Of a stretch of DNA of 64,000 bases, positions 13,013 through 30,717 are shown piece after piece (position 1 is the stretch's first letter; each line of letters opens with the position of its first letter). The DNA is from Enterobacteria phage GEC-3S. The stretch lies in the sequence record HE978309. One strand, given 5' to 3'. The notes under the pieces were generated by a model. That model worked only from the letters and a program-made list of their open reading frames with translations. It did not search any database and was not told the DNA's origin. The position numbers were made by a program, and so were the translations under genes.

Positions 13013-13833
13013 TTAGTCACCTCACCGAAAATTGTAAATTGTCTACGATTCTCATCGCCGAAAGATTCTACTACGTCGTTTACCTTGACGCAAGTCCCGC
13101 GCGGTAAAATTACTTCACATTCGCAAGGGTTCCATGCAATTGATCCAACAACAAAACCTTTATGATCTTTTACGTCAATTACCCATGATACATTACAAGA
13201 ATGTTGCATCTTTCCGGTCATGGATTCATATCGATTCTCACAATAAAGGCTAGTGCTATTTGAAAGCCAGCCTCCAAAGATGATTGGTGTCATGCTGGTC
13301 GATACAAAGTTTTTAAAGGTAAACTCCTTATCTTCAATAATACGCTCTATTGTCTGAATGTCAAGATGTTGACCGCGATAAAGAGTACCGTTTAACTTTT
13401 CGGTTTTATCCATGACACAATCCATCAAATCAACAATCTCTGATATCTCATCGGTCATGTCTTCTTCCCCTAAGAGAGCACCATTTACCCATTCGTATTG
13501 TTCAGACACATAATCACAGATTGCATTATATTCTGCTGGGGTTATGTTGTTATGTTTGTAATGTTTGAATACATTATCTCCAAAGTCTTCGGAGTGTACT
13601 TCATACATCACATTAATGATTTTCTTGACAAATCCATAATCTTGTGTCTCGCGCTCAAGGAAGCGGATAACCTTCACATAATCATCAAAGTTAATCTGAT
13701 CGCTGATCATCTCAGTGATCATGTAACCATTAATCCCCTCAATGTCATATGTTTCGATGTAATTATCCATACGTTCCATCATTGATTCGCGTGATTCTTC
13801 TGAAAGACGAAAATCCTGTAATTTCTTGAACAT
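13009..13833 (-). CDS. ADP-ribosyltransferase, short Alt/Mod-like paralog
   Basis: 274 aa; R (LYRG), STS (FVSTSM) and ExE (CECEV) ART motifs aligned with the Alt C-terminus. Confidence 0.7.
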   Translation of the reverse strand: MFKKLQDFRLSEESRESMMERMDNYIETYDIEGINGYMITEMISDQINFDDYVKVIRFLERETQDYGFVKKIINVMYEVHSEDFGDNVFKHYKHNNITPAEYNAICDYVSEQYEWVNGALLGEEDMTDEISEIVDLMDCVMDKTEKLNGTLYRGQHLDIQTIERIIEDKEFTFKNFVSTSMTPIIFGGWLSNSTSLYCENRYESMTGKMQHSCNVSWVIDVKDHKGFVVGSIAWNPCECEVILPRGTCVKVNDVVESFGDENRRQFTIFGEVTK

Positions 13834-13911: not shown

Positions 13912-15963
13912 TTACATTTTAAATTTATCTGGCATTGCGTCTACAGATACCAGATCAGCGATAAGCTGACGTAGAGTTGCCTTATCTGCTTTCTTACGTT
14001 CGGTTTTAGCTTCGCTAATGAAGCTGGAGAAAGACAGGTCAGAAGCAGGTTTAACAACACCCTCACGGATGAATGCATCACCGTCCGCGATCATCTCGCC
14101 AGATTCTTGTAATGCTGCCAGTTCACTTTTGTTCATAATATGTGCCTCAATGTAATAAGTTTCTTGTGAATCCGTAGATGCCGTAGCACGAGTTACCGTA
14201 TCAAAGGATAACACAACACCGCGAGGAAGTAAAATCTCGCATTCTTTGTAAGCAAATGCTTTGTTACCTACTGGCAATACAGGGATGTTTTCCGCGCCAG
14301 CAATGGAGAAAGCAACATTAGCGCCACCTTCACCGCGAGATCCAGCCATAGAATCTACCCCAGCAACGGCACTAGCCACGTTTGCATTCCAGCCGCCAAA
14401 AATGTTAGGTGCAAGGGAAGTGCTCACGTAGTTTTTAAAGTAAAACGCTTTTTGCTTACGTGCAGTTTCCCACATTTGAGACCGGAAGTCCATACCACGA
14501 TACAGAATAGTACCCGGATCAAGTTTAACGCCATAGTTAGAGAAGGCATTATCCAGTGCATCGCACATCTTGACCAATTCTTCTGGATCTGCGATTCCCT
14601 CAAACTCTTCCAGCTTGCGATCAGTTAGGAAGTTGTTCATATTGATGTATGCTGCATCGGCATATTCGCTCAACACAAAACCTTCCGCGCCCGGCAGATC
14701 AAGATCAATATCTGCCATCATTTCACCCATGTTGCTAGCAATTGCTTCAAACATACCGGAAGCAACATTACGAAGGGCATCGGTTTTAATCTGGGTGATA
14801 TGACTACGCAGCATTTCAGCTTTTACATCTGCTGGCATAGACTGGTCTACTCGATCCATTGCCAGGGCGGTGATCTTGTTTTCGAATACTTCCTCGCTCA
14901 TGATTTCTTTTAAGCGTTTGATTGATGCTGCGATAACTTCCGCAGACAACGGATCATATTGATCCTGAACTTTTACCAGTTCGCTTACTGCGTATTTTGC
15001 ATCGGCTTCGCTTTCAAAAATAGTACGCATGAAACCATAGCGAGTGATAATATCACTTGTCCAGTCATTCAGAGAACGGGCGGTTGAACGTTCTAAGGCT
15101 TGACGGTCAATCAGAGTATTAAACTGTTTCTTAGGTTCTGCTTCGGTGATATCTTCTTCCGGTTTAAGATTAATTTTTTCTGGATGATTCACATAGTCGC
15201 TGTTATAGGTCGCTTGAGTTTTCAGCATTTCTTCTTTAGTCAAACGAGATTTAGCCGCTACGCGTTGTTCTGCTTCCGCGTTTCGTTCTTCTTCTGACAC
15301 AAGACTAGCCGCATATGCCTCATCTTTAGTCAGAGATTCACCAGTAGCCTTAGATACCCAGCGATCACCTAAATCACTTTCTACTTTAGTGAACAAGGAT
15401 TCATCAAGTTTAATCCCTTTAATCTTATCAATCGCCATCCCGCGACGCTTGACAACAACTAAAGCGATCTTTTTGCTGGTCATTACTTCCTGCTGGAATA
15501 CTTCAAACTTCGGTGTACGACGCACCAAACGCTCTATAACGCGCTTAACCAGTTCGGTCTTACCTTTCATGCGGGATACGTTAAAACGGAACATAACAGC
15601 GTCTAATTGCGCTTTACGGGCTGTTTCCATAACCACATCAAACGCACTTGCCATAACTGCAATCGGGTTATCGCCTAGACCATTTTTAAGCTGTACAATA
15701 CGACCGCTTTTGTTCATTTCGCACAGTACAACATGTGCGGTCTTGTCGCCCATACGAATGATTTTAGGTGTTTTGTTGGTGAAGTTACAAAGACGGACAA
15801 TCACATCTTTATCGCGTGTCTGTACTGCAAAAAGCTGTTTAGGATTCTGCTTAGGCTTTAAGCACTGTACCGGAGCAATACTGCCAAAGTTTTCTTCCTC
15901 TTCCGTCAACAGCCATTTCTCGAAAGATTCAATCATTAGATCGTCGATTTCTAAGTTAAACAT
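13912..15963 (-). CDS. alt: Alt ADP-ribosyltransferase
   Basis: 683 aa (T4 Alt is 682 aa by my recollection); ART motifs ILYRG, YVSTSL, KECEIL; position after gene 54. Confidence 0.85.
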   Translation of the reverse strand: MFNLEIDDLMIESFEKWLLTEEEENFGSIAPVQCLKPKQNPKQLFAVQTRDKDVIVRLCNFTNKTPKIIRMGDKTAHVVLCEMNKSGRIVQLKNGLGDNPIAVMASAFDVVMETARKAQLDAVMFRFNVSRMKGKTELVKRVIERLVRRTPKFEVFQQEVMTSKKIALVVVKRRGMAIDKIKGIKLDESLFTKVESDLGDRWVSKATGESLTKDEAYAASLVSEEERNAEAEQRVAAKSRLTKEEMLKTQATYNSDYVNHPEKINLKPEEDITEAEPKKQFNTLIDRQALERSTARSLNDWTSDIITRYGFMRTIFESEADAKYAVSELVKVQDQYDPLSAEVIAASIKRLKEIMSEEVFENKITALAMDRVDQSMPADVKAEMLRSHITQIKTDALRNVASGMFEAIASNMGEMMADIDLDLPGAEGFVLSEYADAAYINMNNFLTDRKLEEFEGIADPEELVKMCDALDNAFSNYGVKLDPGTILYRGMDFRSQMWETARKQKAFYFKNYVSTSLAPNIFGGWNANVASAVAGVDSMAGSRGEGGANVAFSIAGAENIPVLPVGNKAFAYKECEILLPRGVVLSFDTVTRATASTDSQETYYIEAHIMNKSELAALQESGEMIADGDAFIREGVVKPASDLSFSSFISEAKTERKKADKATLRQLIADLVSVDAMPDKFKM

Positions 15964-23780: not shown

Positions 23781-24257
23781 TTATTTTTCTTGATGCTCGC
23801 GCTCGTACTTTTCGAAATAAAATTCTACTGGCTGATCGTGGATTGAAAGCAAGCCAAAGCGTTTAGCCGCTCGCAATCCCATATTGCGCTGAATGTACTT
23901 CTGGAAGTTCTCGCGTATACACTTACGCCAGTATTCTAAGCCCATACAGCTTTTATAAAGATTGCATTGCACACACGCCGGATTCATGTTATCAAGTATA
24001 TCATGTTCCGGTTTATGCATTCCTACAACCTTATACTTCCACGATCCATCATCATTACGGGCAATTCGTCCATTTTCATCATAGACTACCTTTGAGCGTC
24101 GCAATACTGGTTTGATATGGTCTGCGTGCCAGCGATCCCCTAGTTCCTCGCCACAATAGGCACAACGCCCACCGTATTTCATTTTCAGGATCTGGCGTTG
24201 CTCTTTCTTTGACAATTTTTTAGGTTTAGGGGCTTTCGCCCCTTCATTATCACACAT
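23781..24257 (-). CDS. HNH endonuclease (free-standing, homing-endonuclease-like)
   Basis: 158 aa; CAYCG...HADHIKP...N...ACVQCN HNH motif; start overlaps ligase stop. Confidence 0.65.
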   Translation of the reverse strand: MCDNEGAKAPKPKKLSKKEQRQILKMKYGGRCAYCGEELGDRWHADHIKPVLRRSKVVYDENGRIARNDDGSWKYKVVGMHKPEHDILDNMNPACVQCNLYKSCMGLEYWRKCIRENFQKYIQRNMGLRAAKRFGLLSIHDQPVEFYFEKYEREHQEK

Positions 24258-25752
24258 CGAATACCTCTTTTACTGTATTTGCCGTGGTCTTGTCGTAGCG
24301 AATACGTTTGATGATCGGGAGAAATAAAGAGAACTCCGGTTCATCTTCTTTACGTGATTTGCTGCGAATGTACCCGTTGCATGTCATCTCAATGACTTTT
24401 CCGACCAGGTTATGCCGTTCAGCCCATAACATTTCTCGGTCAAGTTCATTTCGACGATCGAACGGAATTACACGTTCAGTACCATCATCACCTTTTTCGG
24501 TTGTAGTGTCGGTTAATCCCGATCCGGTGTTAGTCATCATTCGTCCGCACGCACTACGGACAGTAAAACCGCCTACCTTATTGGGGTCTTTACTATGCGG
24601 ATATACATCAACAATTTCCGCGTCGAAGTCAATAACTTCTTTAAATTTAACCTGATCTTTACTGCGACGATCTTCAAATACACCATGTAAATTTTTAAGG
24701 ATAATACCTTCTAAGCCCATGTTTACATAGCGATGATATACTTCGCGAGCTTCATCGATATTGTTAACTACGGTATTTTCGATTATCTGAACACGAGGAT
24801 CGTTAAGTTCTTCAACAATCTGTTTTAGTTCTTCGAATCGATCTTTATATTGCTTCGTTGCTTTCTCGTTTCCGTAATACACATCACGGTCGATAACATC
24901 CCAGACAGTGTAAACAATACATTGGGCTTCTTCTTTTGGAATAGTTCCTTTCAGTGATTTGTTGAGGATACCATTTCCGGTCTGACGATCTGCAACAACG
25001 GATTCTTTCACCGCTTCCGCTACTGGCGTTAATGGCATTTCCTCTTCTTCAAATATCCATGACAGAGTACCATCATAAACGCTCTCAACGAAGTTCTGCG
25101 CTGGTGTTTGCGAAAGGGTAGGCATATATACCAATTCGCCATCTAGAACAATTCCACGGCCTCGTAGACGCTCTAAAACCGCAAACAAATCATCAAGCCC
25201 TTGATAGGTATTACCTGAGCGGGTATAGATTGCTAATGTTTCCCCGTCAATATCAGCCATACCACGAGCGCCATCGCTTTTAAGTTGTGCATACGCCGGA
25301 TACTTGATATTAGAAATAGTCTTATCAGAACATGACGATGCAAGGTGGCACGGTTGCTGAGGGATCAGTTTCTTCCATACCTTGTTTGCAGTGGTAGCGG
25401 AACAACCGCATTCCAGGTCACGATTCAGGACCATCATTGCAACTTTAGCATCATCCTCTGACAAGCAAGTCAGAGTATCGGTAACTAGCTGTAATGCTGC
25501 GTTGCCAGTTACTTGACGCGTGGCAAGTTTATTTTTAAAGACCTGTAATGCACCGGATAAAGACAATACAGACGAATAGCGAGATGGTTTATCGTATTTC
25601 TTTACGCCAAACGTAACCTGTTTGCAATATGCCAGATAAAAGCATTCTTTCAGCGTTTCATTGCTCGCGGATTCTTTCAGAATCTTTTCTTTCAGCGATG
25701 TTTTGTCTGTTGCTGCAAGCTGATTAATGATATTAAGAATTGACATTTTCAC
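24250..25752 (-). CDS. 30: ATP-dependent DNA ligase
   Basis: 500 aa; KSDGARG adenylation motif and flanking similarity to T4 gp30. Confidence 0.9.
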   Translation of the reverse strand: MKMSILNIINQLAATDKTSLKEKILKESASNETLKECFYLAYCKQVTFGVKKYDKPSRYSSVLSLSGALQVFKNKLATRQVTGNAALQLVTDTLTCLSEDDAKVAMMVLNRDLECGCSATTANKVWKKLIPQQPCHLASSCSDKTISNIKYPAYAQLKSDGARGMADIDGETLAIYTRSGNTYQGLDDLFAVLERLRGRGIVLDGELVYMPTLSQTPAQNFVESVYDGTLSWIFEEEEMPLTPVAEAVKESVVADRQTGNGILNKSLKGTIPKEEAQCIVYTVWDVIDRDVYYGNEKATKQYKDRFEELKQIVEELNDPRVQIIENTVVNNIDEAREVYHRYVNMGLEGIILKNLHGVFEDRRSKDQVKFKEVIDFDAEIVDVYPHSKDPNKVGGFTVRSACGRMMTNTGSGLTDTTTEKGDDGTERVIPFDRRNELDREMLWAERHNLVGKVIEMTCNGYIRSKSRKEDEPEFSLFLPIIKRIRYDKTTANTVKEVFDV

Positions 25753-26212
25753 CTCGTTTTGTTAAACGTTCACGAATATCATTGAGGATACTACAAAATT
25801 CCGATTCAGTCAATATAGTCTTTAACGGATCTGTTCCACCTATACTATGACGCAATTTCTTATTTCCGGTAGCGAGTAATGCTTTACAAAATTCTGGGTT
25901 ATTCCGTGCCATCGTAACAAATGCCAGATGTACCAGTCTGTAATAATGCTCACTCATTCGATGAATCGGGCGACCCTGAAAATATAGCATGTGATTCTCT
26001 ATCTTTTCAGTCCTTCCGGTTCTTTTTGCTTTGCCACCGTGCATCAAAAAGATTTCTCTTTGTCTCTGGGGGTTCTTGAATCTTAATCCCTGTAAAAATC
26101 CTTCTGTGCTGTTAATATCGCAACCAAATAGACGGAATGGTCTTTTATTGAAATTACTCAATTCACCCGATGGATAAGGTCCACCCGCATAGATATCAAT
26201 TTCATAAGTCAT
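25733..26212 (-). CDS. NADAR (DUF1768, YbiA-like) domain protein
   Basis: 159 aa; IDIYAGG...LSNF...F..G...STEGFLQGLRF...ALLATGNKKL pattern of NADAR proteins. Confidence 0.55.
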   Translation of the reverse strand: MTYEIDIYAGGPYPSGELSNFNKRPFRLFGCDINSTEGFLQGLRFKNPQRQREIFLMHGGKAKRTGRTEKIENHMLYFQGRPIHRMSEHYYRLVHLAFVTMARNNPEFCKALLATGNKKLRHSIGGTDPLKTILTESEFCSILNDIRERLTKRGENVNS

Positions 26213-26366
26213 TGAAACTAATCTCGCTAATCAGAGAGAACGGATCATAATCGTCATTAGGAATATCGATAGTAATCGAATGAGGATTTACCCATACACC
26301 AAACTGGTCTTCTTCGGTGAATACTTCGGTATGGATTTCGTGGATGTTTACATTCATAGTTTTCAT
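26202..26366 (-). CDS. hypothetical small protein (54 aa)
   Basis: sub-60-aa ORF MKTMNVNIHEIHTEVF...; AAGGAA RBS; stop overlaps the NADAR start. Confidence 0.35.
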   Translation of the reverse strand: MKTMNVNIHEIHTEVFTEEDQFGVWVNPHSITIDIPNDDYDPFSLISEISFNDL

Positions 26367-26408
26367 AATAAAATTCCTTAATAATCAATAACTTACAAAA
26401 TCATATAG

Positions 26409-26437
26409 CCAAAATATAGGCGGGATTATTTCCCGCC
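26409..26437 (-). terminator. rho-independent terminator after gene 31
   Basis: hairpin GGCGGGAAAUAAUCCCGCC then UAUAUUUUG. Confidence 0.45.
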
Positions 26438-26449
26438 GTTTAAAAATCA

Positions 26450-26773
26450 TTAACCGTAAACTACCACAATATTCTGTTTGTGCGTTACAGTCCATTTCAG
26501 GTCGATCTCTTCTTCCTTCTTAACGCCGTTAATAACGTCTGGATGAGGAACTTTATTCATCTTTCCGTGTGGCAGTAGAACAGTTTTACCCAGCAATTCT
26601 TTATCTACAGTTTCACCAATATCAATAATCTTACCTACCAGCGGAATCTCGCCCATAGTGCGCTTTTGCTCAATAATGATCCCCATAGAGCTTTTTACTT
26701 CGGTCCCTGCGCTTTCTGCTTTAGCTTCGATAATTACATAATCACCAAGTGCTTTAGGAGTTTTAACGGTCAT
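26450..26773 (-). CDS. 31: gp31 co-chaperonin (GroES-like)
   Basis: 107 aa; LGDYVIIEAKAESAGTEV...NKVPHP... similar to T4 gp31. Confidence 0.8.
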   Translation of the reverse strand: MTVKTPKALGDYVIIEAKAESAGTEVKSSMGIIIEQKRTMGEIPLVGKIIDIGETVDKELLGKTVLLPHGKMNKVPHPDVINGVKKEEEIDLKWTVTHKQNIVVVYG

Positions 26774-26814
26774 AATTTTATTACCTCTTCAAATCAATAC
26801 AGTTTAATGATGAA

Positions 26815-27135
26815 TTATTTATAAATTTCGACGATCTGTGCTGGAGTCAGCCCGTCTACATTAATCAGACTATCAAGCCCAAAACTACGGAAACCTTCAA
26901 CTGCAATTTCATATACGGGCAAAGATGTTTCTGATTCTTTACGCGGTTTTTCTACATTAGGAACTAACCACTTTTCGTATGTTTCAAACGGCATCAGTGC
27001 CGGATCTCGCGTGGCGATCATCTCGCGGACAGTACCATCTTTCTTAGTAAACTGCAAAGAGTGAGTACCGACCGAAAACATTTTCTTTAGTGCTTCACGA
27101 ATTGCGATATTATCAATTTGTTCAGTCATTATCAA
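26815..27135 (-). CDS. hypothetical protein (106 aa)
   Basis: ORF track; between cd and 31. Confidence 0.5.
   Translation of the reverse strand: MIMTEQIDNIAIREALKKMFSVGTHSLQFTKKDGTVREMIATRDPALMPFETYEKWLVPNVEKPRKESETSLPVYEIAVEGFRSFGLDSLINVDGLTPAQIVEIYK
26816..26823 (-). promoter_or_regulatory. T4-type late promoter (TATAAATA on minus strand) upstream of gene 31
   Basis: plus-strand TATTTATA about 43 nt upstream of the gp31 ATG, overlapping the stop region of the preceding ORF. Confidence 0.4.
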
Positions 27136-27628
27136 TACCCTTCAAATCAGTCAATAATGCTTTTGGAATACGCGTAACCGTAATGTCGGCTTTATCCAAA
27201 ATATCAGCCCAATCACGCCCACCATTTCGATCATATGTGTCGCAATAATATAGATGTTTAATTCCACTGTTTGCAATTGCTTTAGCGCAATCTGGACATG
27301 GTGAAGCAGTACACCACATACTAGCGCCTTCAATCGATACACCGCTACGGGCAGCAAACAAAATAGCATTTAATTCAGCGTGGATCTCGTTTTTCTGTGA
27401 CCATGCACTATGCTCTGACCGTTTTTCAGGGATCATTTTACCTTCATCATCCAGCCAACCGCTTTTATGTGCATGACAGCTACAATTTACTTGCCCTGCT
27501 GGAGTTCCATTAAATCCAGTAGAAATGATTCGCCCGTCTTTTTCAATTAGTGCGCCTACCTTCCACGAAACGCATTTAGAGTTCTTTGCGATTAGATAGG
27601 CGATCTGCATGTAAGTTTGTGACAACAT
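27122..27628 (-). CDS. cd: dCMP deaminase
   Basis: 168 aa; HAELNAI and CTASPCPDCAKAI zinc-binding CDA motifs. Confidence 0.9.
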   Translation of the reverse strand: MLSQTYMQIAYLIAKNSKCVSWKVGALIEKDGRIISTGFNGTPAGQVNCSCHAHKSGWLDDEGKMIPEKRSEHSAWSQKNEIHAELNAILFAARSGVSIEGASMWCTASPCPDCAKAIANSGIKHLYYCDTYDRNGGRDWADILDKADITVTRIPKALLTDLKGIDND

Positions 27629-27649
27629 AATATAATCCTCACATATTAA

Positions 27650-27853
27650 TTAACCGTATACGCGAAAGTATTCTACTGATCCGTCGCTATACTGTTTTAC
27701 ATTGAATGTATTCACACCATGATTATTGCTCATAATGACATATACACTACGACGCTCATCGCTAAACGGGTTAACTGGTGCGGGTTCAATTTCAACATTA
27801 AAACCACGTTTAGCAAGTGCTTCGCCTAATTGCTTGAGTTTATCGGTAAACAT
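27650..27853 (-). CDS. hypothetical protein (67 aa)
   Basis: ORF track. Confidence 0.45.
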   Translation of the reverse strand: MFTDKLKQLGEALAKRGFNVEIEPAPVNPFSDERRSVYVIMSNNHGVNTFNVKQYSDGSVEYFRVYG

Positions 27854-28731
27854 TAAAAGTCTCCGTAGTTAACCTGAAAACATTCTACACCAATTGCGCG
27901 GTACATGTCAACCACTTGATCACGGTCATCTACTGCCAACACAACATGATAACGCGGTGCAATTTCAGAGAAGAAAATCTCTTTCTTCACTTCATGGTCA
28001 GGACGACGATCATTAGTTTCACGTTGAAAGTGATCACTAGGTTCAATACCCTGTTCACGCAGCCATTGCAGAGTATCTTCTTCGCAAACATCCTCACGCC
28101 CTGAGCATGTAATGATACGATAACCATTATCACGATACAGTTTAAGCATTTCGATCACTTGCGGACGCGGTTTATCTTCTTTGACCTTTGTCCAGTCAAA
28201 CGGATGACGACCGCCCTTATCCGCTAATGTCCCATCAATATCAAAGATCACTGCTTTCGGCAGCATGGTATTCGGTTTGTATACTTCTTGACCCATATAT
28301 TCCTGCATCAGATAAAATTGGTTGCGCAAATGAGAAAGTGGAATTGCTTTCTCTCCGCGATAGAAATTACGTTTCTTTAGTGTCTCAAATGATTCATTGA
28401 ACACTTGTTCAGTATACACCGCGTTAAATTCTTTTGCAAGTTTTTTGTAGAATACACGATGTTTTTCTTTCAGGTTAGTATCAGAGATAATGATACTTAA
28501 TCCGCGTGATAGAGTCTCACGAGCAATCATTCTCTGAATAGACTCTACCAGCTTTTCTTTTTCCTTAGTATACTTGTATTTCAAATGTGAGTCAACACCA
28601 AACAACATAAGACGAAGGTCATCACGATTCACATTACGATAATTACTAAACCGTTTACATGTCTCCATAGCCCATGTAGTTTTACCGGACCCAGAACAAC
28701 CAACGGTTAAAATCACTTCACATTTCGGCAT
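27853..28731 (-). CDS. pseT: polynucleotide 5'-kinase/3'-phosphatase
   Basis: ORF track 27853..28752; P-loop GCSGSGKTT near N-terminus and HAD motif FDIDGT in C-terminal half. Confidence 0.85.
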   Translation of the reverse strand: MPKCEVILTVGCSGSGKTTWAMETCKRFSNYRNVNRDDLRLMLFGVDSHLKYKYTKEKEKLVESIQRMIARETLSRGLSIIISDTNLKEKHRVFYKKLAKEFNAVYTEQVFNESFETLKKRNFYRGEKAIPLSHLRNQFYLMQEYMGQEVYKPNTMLPKAVIFDIDGTLADKGGRHPFDWTKVKEDKPRPQVIEMLKLYRDNGYRIITCSGREDVCEEDTLQWLREQGIEPSDHFQRETNDRRPDHEVKKEIFFSEIAPRYHVVLAVDDRDQVVDMYRAIGVECFQVNYGDF

Positions 28732-29183
28732 TATTTCTCCTTCGGTTTGCACCGTTCCTCATTAAGTTCTTTGCGATAATAACACATGATCAACTTACTT
28801 TCAAGTGTATATCTCTTAATATCCGCAAGCCAGACTCTGAATTTTTGGGAGTCCTCCCACGACATAGAAACTCTAGGTTTACCGTCTATTGTATCCACTT
28901 TCAGGTCAATGTCAACTTTTTCTATTGGTGCTGGTAGTGGAGGATGTAATTTCGGTTCTTGTGAATAATGGTCCATTGTACACGAAGAAAGCACAAATAC
29001 AATAGGCACAGCGAAGACATGGATTATGGAGGTCTGAAAATTCTTGTGTACTTTCTTAAACATCCAGTGTATCACGAAAATTGAAAACACCATCAGAATA
29101 ATAATGCTTGCACCTATCCACAAATAATCAACCAGATTAAAATTGCTTATCTGCTCTTGCGTAGGCAATATTTCTATGCTCAT
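28731..29183 (-). CDS. o-spanin (outer-membrane lipoprotein), start uncertain
   Basis: lipobox VFVLSSC after a hydrophobic segment, Pro-rich mature region; probable start near 29063 (MFKKVHK...); adjacent to pseT as T4 pseT.2. Confidence 0.55.
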   Translation of the reverse strand: MSIEILPTQEQISNFNLVDYLWIGASIIILMVFSIFVIHWMFKKVHKNFQTSIIHVFAVPIVFVLSSCTMDHYSQEPKLHPPLPAPIEKVDIDLKVDTIDGKPRVSMSWEDSQKFRVWLADIKRYTLESKLIMCYYRKELNEERCKPKEK

Positions 29184-29503
29184 TTAGTAGCCTCCTTTAA
29201 TTCTTCGGTAAACTCCTTAAATGAGTCATTAAGCTGTTTCTCTACCAACTTGGGTTTTTGTGCTACTACATAGCCTCGTGTAGCGTCTTTCATTGCTTTG
29301 TTTTGTTCTTCTGCAAACTTAGTTCTTATTCCGTACATCTCCTTTTGCAGCGAGTCTACAATCTTCATCTTTTCATCTGTCTTTTTCTTATACTCTGTAA
29401 ATTCCTGATTCAGTCGATCTACCTCCTTTTTATTTTCCCACCACATATTTCCACCTACCCCCAGCAACACAGAGATGATAACAATGTATATCAGCTTTGA
29501 CAT
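29180..29503 (-). CDS. i-spanin (N-terminal TM plus coiled coil)
   Basis: ORF track 29180..29554; start MSKLIYIVIISVLLGV with GGGGGT RBS; position as T4 pseT.3. Confidence 0.55.
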   Translation of the reverse strand: MSKLIYIVIISVLLGVGGNMWWENKKEVDRLNQEFTEYKKKTDEKMKIVDSLQKEMYGIRTKFAEEQNKAMKDATRGYVVAQKPKLVEKQLNDSFKEFTEELKEATK

Positions 29504-29513
29504 ATTACCCCCA

Positions 29514-29541
29514 ACGACAAAAGGCGGGGAACTAGCCCCGC
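29514..29541 (-). terminator. rho-independent terminator after rnlA
   Basis: hairpin GCGGGGCUAGUUCCCCGC then CUUUUGUCG. Confidence 0.4.
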
Positions 29542-29547
29542 TTATTA

Positions 29548-30717
29548 TTACCAATCAATCTTATCTGCCGGAATCAGTTTCTTATAATTCCGTAGATAGT
29601 AAGTTTTCATTGAATCCAGAATACGGTCATAATCAAGACCATCGAATGCAATCATCAGACACATGAAAATATATGCTTGTGCATCACCATGTTTACGCGA
29701 TTCGATAGTCGCATTGGATGCATATGTCTTTCTGTCTTCTCCCGCGTGTTCGTTATAAAACTCTGTTGCTGTCGTAAAGGCATTGCGAAGAATAGACCTG
29801 AATGCTTCCTCGAATAACTCGATTCGTTCCAGTGCTTCCGGTTCGCCTTCATATGCAGCACGCAAATCATCGGTTTCGCTTTCTACGACATAGTAGATCA
29901 GGTTATTAGGAAACATCGATGTGTTTTTAATGTTATGCACACCAATATACCATTCACTCTTCACTTTGAACAGTTGACCGTCTTTAGTGCGTGCAACAAT
30001 TCCTTCGATACCTTCTGCGGTCCGAACTTCATCAAGAATATTGCTAAAACGCGCTGAATCAACCTGTAACGCATTTACCAGATGAGGACGTAGGATTGAA
30101 TCGGCGAATAGCATTTGATGCGGTACATACTCTCCTGTGACGTTATGGCGTACATTCAGAAGTGTTAGCGACGGTTCAGAATATTCTACAACAATTCGGT
30201 TGCTGGGTGCTGTATATTCAAAGTTGAAAGTATAATCAGACCCAATATCGGCGATCTTAGCGCGTAGATCCGCATACTTCTCGGAATACAGAAGACCGTT
30301 TGCTCTCTCTGCCTGGCTTGAGTATAAGGCCGCTTTAGACTTCAACTGAACATAGCCGTTATCAATGTATGTGCTTACTAGACTACCGTCCATTTTGTCC
30401 ATGACCATTTCCACATCTTCCGGCTTAAAGCGAGCGCGATCATTCTCACCTAAATTAAAAAACTTCTCCATAGGACGAGATGCAATGCGGACCGGACTAC
30501 CTTTATCGTCAATTTCAAACATGATCCCGCGACACTCTAACGCATCTGGTTTATTCCACATTTCCGGTTTGCTCAAGTACAGATAACTAAAAATGCGCAT
30601 ACGGGTTTGCATCGCCGTAATTTCATCTTTGTAATAGAACGTATCAGATCCGTCACATAGTGCCATCAGATTTTTGAACAATGCTAAAACTTTTTTGTTG
30701 TTTTCTTTTGTTGACAT
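29548..30717 (-). CDS. rnlA: RNA ligase 1
   Basis: 389 aa; LECRGIMFE...VRIASRPMEKFFNL matches T4 gp63/Rnl1. Confidence 0.9.
   Translation of the reverse strand: MSTKENNKKVLALFKNLMALCDGSDTFYYKDEITAMQTRMRIFSYLYLSKPEMWNKPDALECRGIMFEIDDKGSPVRIASRPMEKFFNLGENDRARFKPEDVEMVMDKMDGSLVSTYIDNGYVQLKSKAALYSSQAERANGLLYSEKYADLRAKIADIGSDYTFNFEYTAPSNRIVVEYSEPSLTLLNVRHNVTGEYVPHQMLFADSILRPHLVNALQVDSARFSNILDEVRTAEGIEGIVARTKDGQLFKVKSEWYIGVHNIKNTSMFPNNLIYYVVESETDDLRAAYEGEPEALERIELFEEAFRSILRNAFTTATEFYNEHAGEDRKTYASNATIESRKHGDAQAYIFMCLMIAFDGLDYDRILDSMKTYYLRNYKKLIPADKIDW

Follow-up and report, generated by a model that had tools for sequence, protein, structure and literature searches.

The window analysed here is a stretch of 64,000 nucleotides of Enterobacteria phage GEC-3S DNA (HE978309), and the gene 30.3 region was evaluated within it. 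According to the ORF listing of the window, a 159-aa ORF ran from ATG to stop on the minus strand at exactly 25733..26212, which confirmed the coordinates given in an earlier sequence-only reading. The gene order on the minus strand was 31, 31.-1, 30.3, and 30 (Table 1). The ORF had been described as lying immediately downstream of DNA ligase; both genes are on the minus strand, so 30.3 is directly upstream of the ligase in the direction of transcription. The ligase was 41% identical to T4 gp30. Its ATG (25746) was located 14 nt inside the 3' end of 30.3 and was preceded by the ribosome binding site GAGGTG. A 54-aa ORF was located directly upstream of 30.3, and its stop codon overlapped the 30.3 start (ATGA), an arrangement that suggests translational coupling. 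The Pfam search with this 54-aa ORF returned no match. Directly past the ligase, an HNH endonuclease ORF overlapped the ligase end by 8 nt. The equivalent position in T4 is occupied by alt.1 and alt; hence, the HNH ORF appears to be an insertion of the homing-endonuclease type that is particular to RB49-like phages.

The transcriptional signals around the block were also explored. Right after gene 31, a hairpin on the minus strand (GGCGGGAAATAATCCCGCC then TATATTTT) is plausible as an intrinsic terminator parting gene 31 from the 31.-1/30.3/30/HNH block, and such sites occurred at background frequency in the terminator scan as a whole. The same scan found no terminator between the 30.3 ORF and the ligase, and the promoter scan upstream of the gene block gave nothing above background. 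The small ORF 31.-1, gene 30.3, and the DNA ligase probably share a transcription unit, as deduced entirely from the gene overlaps and the absent terminator.

Table 1. Positions of the genes, residues, and signals of the gene 30.3 region in the window.
Feature	Position	Strand	Basis or description
HNH endonuclease ORF, 158 aa	23781..24257	-	PF01844; phrog_2118, E 8e-55
Gene 30, ATP-dependent DNA ligase	24250..25746	-	PF01068, E 2.8e-22; phrog_114, E 4.5e-141; RB49 annotation
Gene 30.3 (adfN orthologue)	25733..26212	-	159 aa; phage-type NADAR domain without extensions
C-terminal alpha-helix, residues 136-157	25742..25807	-	DSSP of AlphaFold2 model
His122, codon CAT, last beta-strand	25847..25849	-	Profile alignment to 8bau
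Arg44, codon AGA	26081..26083	-	Alignments to T4 and 8bau
Glu37, codon GAA	26102..26104	-	BLASTP with T4; profile alignment to 8bau
54-aa ORF, gp31.-1 in RB49	26202..26366	-	phrog_15277, E 4.6e-42; RB49 annotation
Terminator-like GC hairpin and T-run after gene 31	26419..26437	-	Consensus match only

The 3-kb region shared 98% DNA identity with RB49, Phi1, and some 55 further Krischvirus phages that infect E. coli and Shigella, and the window was assigned at the nucleotide level to an RB49-like Krischvirus. The records of RB49 and Phi1 annotate the ORF as "gp30.3 conserved hypothetical protein". The ORF differed from the RB49 reference copy by 12 synonymous changes and 1 non-synonymous change, corresponding to an omega (dN/dS) of ~0.02. 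Hence, gene 30.3 of the window is judged to be a real, functional gene under strong purifying selection.

The 31-to-30 order of the window was also present in T4 and in the Acinetobacter phage AB-Navy97, with additional genes in between. In T4, 30.2 and 30.1 sit between 30.3 and the ligase, whereas the window 30.3 overlaps the ligase directly; 30.4-30.9 and rIII are located upstream of the T4 30.3. The order in AB-Navy97 was cd, 31, rIII, 30.3, ligase, and ADP-ribosyltransferase, as in the T4-like coliphages. T4 30.1, 30.2, 30.4-30.9, rIII, and alt.1 had no homologue in the 64-kb window at E<=1e-3. The linkage of 30.3 with the ligase held in T4, RB49, and an Acinetobacter phage, but it failed in Vibrio, Rhizobium, and Klebsiella phages. 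By this distribution, the linkage looks like inherited synteny rather than functional coupling. Elsewhere in the window, tblastn with T4 Alt gave a full-length match on the minus strand (13921..15873, 27% identity, E 2e-58) and a second, shorter match just beyond it (13063..13542, minus strand, 31% identity, E 3e-20). The T4 annotation describes old partial duplications of the alt start (alt.-1 and alt.-2).

In the family assignment of the protein, Pfam PF08010 (Phage_30_3) was matched over profile positions 2-138 of 138 with 132.5 bits (E 1e-38, gathering score 36), and phrog_652 was matched with an E of 4.5e-45. In BLASTP, residues 4-150 aligned with residues 3-152 of T4 gp30.3 (38% identity, E 8e-30), and the ORF is identified by these comparisons as the orthologue, in an RB49-type Krischvirus, of T4 gene 30.3/adfN. 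An exhaustive phmmer search of 1.84 billion representative proteins gave 973 homologues at E<=1e-3. Moreover, 1508 phage records contained the gene by tblastn, most of them from T4-like phages infecting enterobacteria, Klebsiella, Aeromonas, Acinetobacter, and Vibrio.

Some members of the gp30.3 family were far longer than one domain. Four of them (P0019, P0070, P0120, and P0136) had ~290 aa, and others, including P0021, P0024, and P0041, had 350-540 aa; these lengths suggest fusion proteins. The four ~290-aa proteins matched the query in two stretches, and the catalytic Glu of the aligned copy was replaced by N, A, or Q, which points to two NADAR domains in tandem, one of them degenerate.

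The sequence-only reading had placed the protein in the NADAR family on the motifs IDIYAGG, LSNF, EGFLQGLRF, and ALLATGNKKL, all of which are in the translation, the first within EIDIYAGG. The corresponding Pfam profile PF08719 was matched with only 15.5 bits (E 0.021), which was below its gathering score of 35.1, and the NCBIfam NADAR anti-phage model NF053876 was also sub-threshold (13.8 bits). These sub-threshold matches were set aside as evidence, and fold and family-profile tests were used in their place. AlphaFold2, supplied with 13 family sequences, produced a confident model, with a pLDDT of 93.7 and a pTM of 0.88. The sole meaningful Foldseek matches in the PDB were E. coli YbiA (E 4e-6) and the Phytophthora NADAR with ADP-ribose (E 2e-3). 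The YbiA/NADAR fold, a helical core with small flanking sheets, was present in the window protein. Furthermore, a profile of 73 family members found YbiA from sequence alone with an E of 9e-4. Hence, the fold comparison and the family-profile search, and not PF08719, place the modelled protein in the NADAR superfamily; the family claim stood by these two routes but failed in the search with PF08719.

The active-site positions were evaluated in 163 family sequences. Glu37 aligned with T4 AdfN E36, PnNADAR E43, and E. coli C7 NADAR E88 in the BLASTP alignment with T4 and the profile alignment to 8bau, and Glu was found at this position in 158 of the 163 sequences (97%). His122, in the motif LRHSIGG, was paired with PnNADAR E125, the residue that follows ...RLY in 8bau; 161 sequences (99%) had His there. 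According to published work, the Glu (PnNADAR E43, C7 E88) coordinates the distal ribose, and the Lys (PnNADAR K50, C7 K95) coordinates the diphosphate (PMC11543638, PMC11257639). A last-strand His is the signature of phage NADARs, the residue being Glu in YbiA and Asp in DarG1 (PMC11125620, PMC11543638). The C-terminal helix, which is lost in the inactive RB69 allele, is predicted to be intact in the window protein, and the alignment with T4 gp30.3 extended to the final residue of the latter.

The position of the essential Lys, seven residues past the Glu (T4 K43, PnNADAR K50, C7 K95), was occupied by Arg44. The catalytic residues expected of a NADAR enzyme were thus partly retained: Glu37 and His122 were kept, but the essential Lys was replaced. 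As aligned, Arg44 is a natural K-to-R variant, a conservative change at the phosphate-binding position. Among the 163 sequences, Lys was found in 147, Arg in 11 (~7%), and other residues in 5. The Arg forms clustered; those of Krischvirus, the Acinetobacter phage AB-Navy97 (Lazarusvirus), and several metagenomic representatives were mutual nearest neighbours, and a few further, independent Arg occurrences were located outside this main subclade. The AB-Navy97 homologue (L004 2992..3474) has its Arg at the catalytic Lys position within STEGFLQGLRES. The effect of the same exchange has been reported for the E. coli C7 NADAR, in which K95A showed the Lys to be essential, and K95R retained G-ADPr hydrolysis in vitro but lost the rescue of DarT1 toxicity in cells (Schuller et al. 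2023, PMC11543638). Hence, Arg appears compatible with catalysis, as C7 K95R still hydrolyses G-ADPr in vitro.

The function of the T4 orthologue has been established. T4 gp30.3 was renamed AdfN (anti-DarT factor NADAR) by Johannesman et al. (bioRxiv 2024 PMC11257639; Nat Commun 2025 PMC11825919), who found it to be a DNA ADP-ribosylglycohydrolase with specificity for guanine, both necessary and sufficient for overcoming DarTG1. Deletion of adfN in T4 or T2 lowered plaquing on DarTG1 hosts by about four logs. Ectopic AdfN rescued RB69 on these hosts, and the E36A and K43A substitutions abolished the rescue; purified AdfN stripped ADP-ribose off DarT1-modified DNA and did not bind DarT1 (PMC11257639 / PMC11825919). 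RB69 is DarTG1-sensitive because a frameshift in its gp30.3 removes the C-terminal helix (PMC11257639). T4 AdfN was fully effective only in T-even infections, possibly via a T-even partner (PMC11257639 / PMC11825919). The 2024 preprint (PMC11257639) held that AdfN needs hydroxymethyl-cytosine DNA; this was withdrawn in the published version, in which the unmodified T4-GT7 was still AdfN-dependent (PMC11825919). In an independent study, the T4 protein hydrolysed G-ADPr and not T-ADPr in vitro (PMC11125620). Work from 2026 placed phage NADARs among the removers of G-ADPr, and not of C-ADPr, from DNA and located the attachment of ADP-ribose at the guanine N2 (PMC12945103). According to transposon sequencing (HIDEN-SEQ), T4 30.3/adfN is essential only on DarTG1 and dispensable on E. 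coli K-12 without DarTG1 (bioRxiv 10.1101/2025.11.20.689424). The literature search found no study that had tested DarTG against RB49 or another Krischvirus. AdfA (T4 gp61.2), the other anti-DarT1 factor, was not found in the 64-kb window; in the phage collection it had 487 matches, all at least 60% identical to T4 and in T-even types only.

A mechanism for the window protein was derived from T4 AdfN and the solved NADAR structures. Infection of a DarTG1-carrying host would unleash the DarT1 toxin, which would use NAD+ to put ADP-ribose on the N2 of guanines in phage DNA and thereby block replication. The phage enzyme would then bind the ADP-ribose, with Arg44 on the diphosphate in place of the usual Lys and Glu37 on the distal ribose. 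Together with the last-strand His122, these residues would allow hydrolysis of the ribose-guanine N-glycosidic bond, releasing unmodified DNA and free ADP-ribose. The enzyme would thus act catalytically on the DNA and not through toxin binding, in the manner of an orphan antitoxin. The sequence, fold, residue, and selection results make the window protein a gp30.3/AdfN orthologue and a minimal NADAR-fold "phage NADAR"; by analogy with T4, it is likely to counter DarT1 by guanine de-ADP-ribosylation. The sequence-only reading had proposed that a NADAR N-glycosidase reversing guanine ADP-ribosylation would counter DarT-type toxins, and this proposal gains support from the demonstration of that activity for T4 gp30.3 (PMC11257639 / PMC11825919).

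Several findings count against an AdfN role. The identity to the tested T4 enzyme was only 38%, and the PF08719 score was below threshold. In the window protein, Arg stands where T4 has an essential Lys (the K43A mutant is dead), and the C7 DarG1 K95R, active in vitro, gave no in vivo rescue (PMC11543638). T4 AdfN is also fully effective only in the T-even context, and none of the T4 neighbours 30.1, 30.2, and 30.4-30.9 has a homologue in the window.

Four other explanations were weighed, all of which are less likely than the AdfN-type role. The protein may be an active ADP-ribosyl-guanine hydrolase with a main in vivo target other than the E. coli C7-type DarT1, such as other guanine-specific toxins, DarT1 variants, or ADP-ribosylated RNA, in which case the K-to-R change would be an adjustment of how substrates are handled. 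NADARs have conserved activity in vitro yet strong specificity in vivo (PMC11125620), all NADAR families also take G-ADPr off RNA (PMC12945103), Arg44 marks a conserved subclade to which both Krischvirus and an Acinetobacter phage belong, and DarG1 K95R split in vitro activity from in vivo rescue (PMC11543638). However, every tested phage NADAR, from three independent lineages, countered DarTG1 (PMC11257639), no data point to another target, and Arg is conservative at a phosphate-binding position; this explanation is therefore considered unlikely. If the K-to-R change had instead left the protein catalytically weak or dead, it could have been kept for a non-enzymatic role, e.g., binding ADP-ribosylated DNA. 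The loss of function in T4 K43A and C7 K95A and the in vivo failure of C7 K95R (PMC11257639, PMC11543638) fit such a loss, but K95R was active in vitro (PMC11543638), Glu37 and His122 are strictly kept at an omega of 0.02, and the fixation of Arg across a multi-genus subclade fits a working active site. A weakened or dead enzyme is thus very improbable.

Clearance of collateral ADP-ribosylation by the phage's own Alt/Mod-type ADP-ribosyltransferases, rather than of host toxin damage, was given an equally slender chance. The Alt homologue at 13921..15873 (E 2e-58) is located ~8 kb further along the same strand, and alt adjoins the ligase/30.3 block in T4 and an Acinetobacter phage. T4 Alt, however, is annotated as an RNA polymerase ADP-ribosyltransferase, not a guanine-modifying one, 30.3 has other neighbours in Vibrio, Rhizobium, and Klebsiella phages, and T4 adfN insertions were lost only with DarTG1 present (HIDEN-SEQ, bioRxiv 10.1101/2025.11.20.689424). 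The sequence-only reading had offered, as its alternative, a metabolic N-glycosidase of the YbiA type with riboflavin-pathway intermediates or nucleotides as substrates; such a role is extremely improbable. The last-strand Glu that defines YbiA is His122 in the window protein, as in all phage NADARs; no riboflavin gene was present among the neighbours examined (23781..30717), and the phenotype of the T4 orthologue is DarTG1-specific.

The AdfN-type interpretation is supported and concerns a known family, gp30.3/AdfN being an established and already published anti-DarTG1 factor. A blind reading of the sequence thus recovered a function that had been experimentally validated in the T4 orthologue, and this adds little new biology. 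The single useful lead concerns the Arg form: in RB49-like phages, and in some T4-like phages of Acinetobacter, Arg occurs naturally where T4 AdfN has its essential Lys. For studies of what sets NADAR specificity in vivo, such variants are already at hand. There is a small probability that the Arg44 form, fixed in Krischvirus and common to Acinetobacter Lazarusvirus and metagenomic relatives, marks a functionally distinct phage NADAR subclade in which the loss of Lys may retune efficiency or substrate range. If so, the change would not be neutral; it might, for example, favour other DarT1 variants or RNA G-ADPr, or make the enzyme independent of the putative T-even cofactor of T4 AdfN.

The window protein was compared with the known NADAR systems. 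DarG1, which serves as the DarTG1 antitoxin (E. coli C7; G. lovleyi, PDB 8bat), has a last-strand Asp, N-terminal extensions, and an adjacent darT1, whereas the window protein has His in that strand and lacks both extensions and a toxin partner, its neighbours being the 54-aa ORF and the DNA ligase. E. coli YbiA (PDB 2b3w) and the P. nicotianae NADAR (PDB 8bau) differ from it by a last-strand Glu and share ~20% identity with it; YbiA belongs to a LexA-controlled host operon and did not rescue DarT1 toxicity (PMC11125620). NADAR-Bas32 and NADAR-Bas60, like the window protein, are phage-encoded, and both counter DarTG1 (PMC11257639). Unlike the window protein, they represent other, independently acquired NADAR branches outside the gp30.3 family and neutralise DarT1 even without infection (PMC11257639). 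T4 AdfN was the closest counterpart with tested function. The window protein differs from it by Arg44 in place of Lys43 and by 9 additional C-terminal residues, and the internal out-of-frame ORF 30.3' of T4 has no counterpart of at least 40 aa in the window gene. Common to both proteins are PF08010 membership, a gene location on the ligase strand between genes 31 and 30, and a core-only NADAR domain of ~150-160 aa in which E36/E37, the last-strand His of phage NADARs, and the C-terminal helix are conserved.
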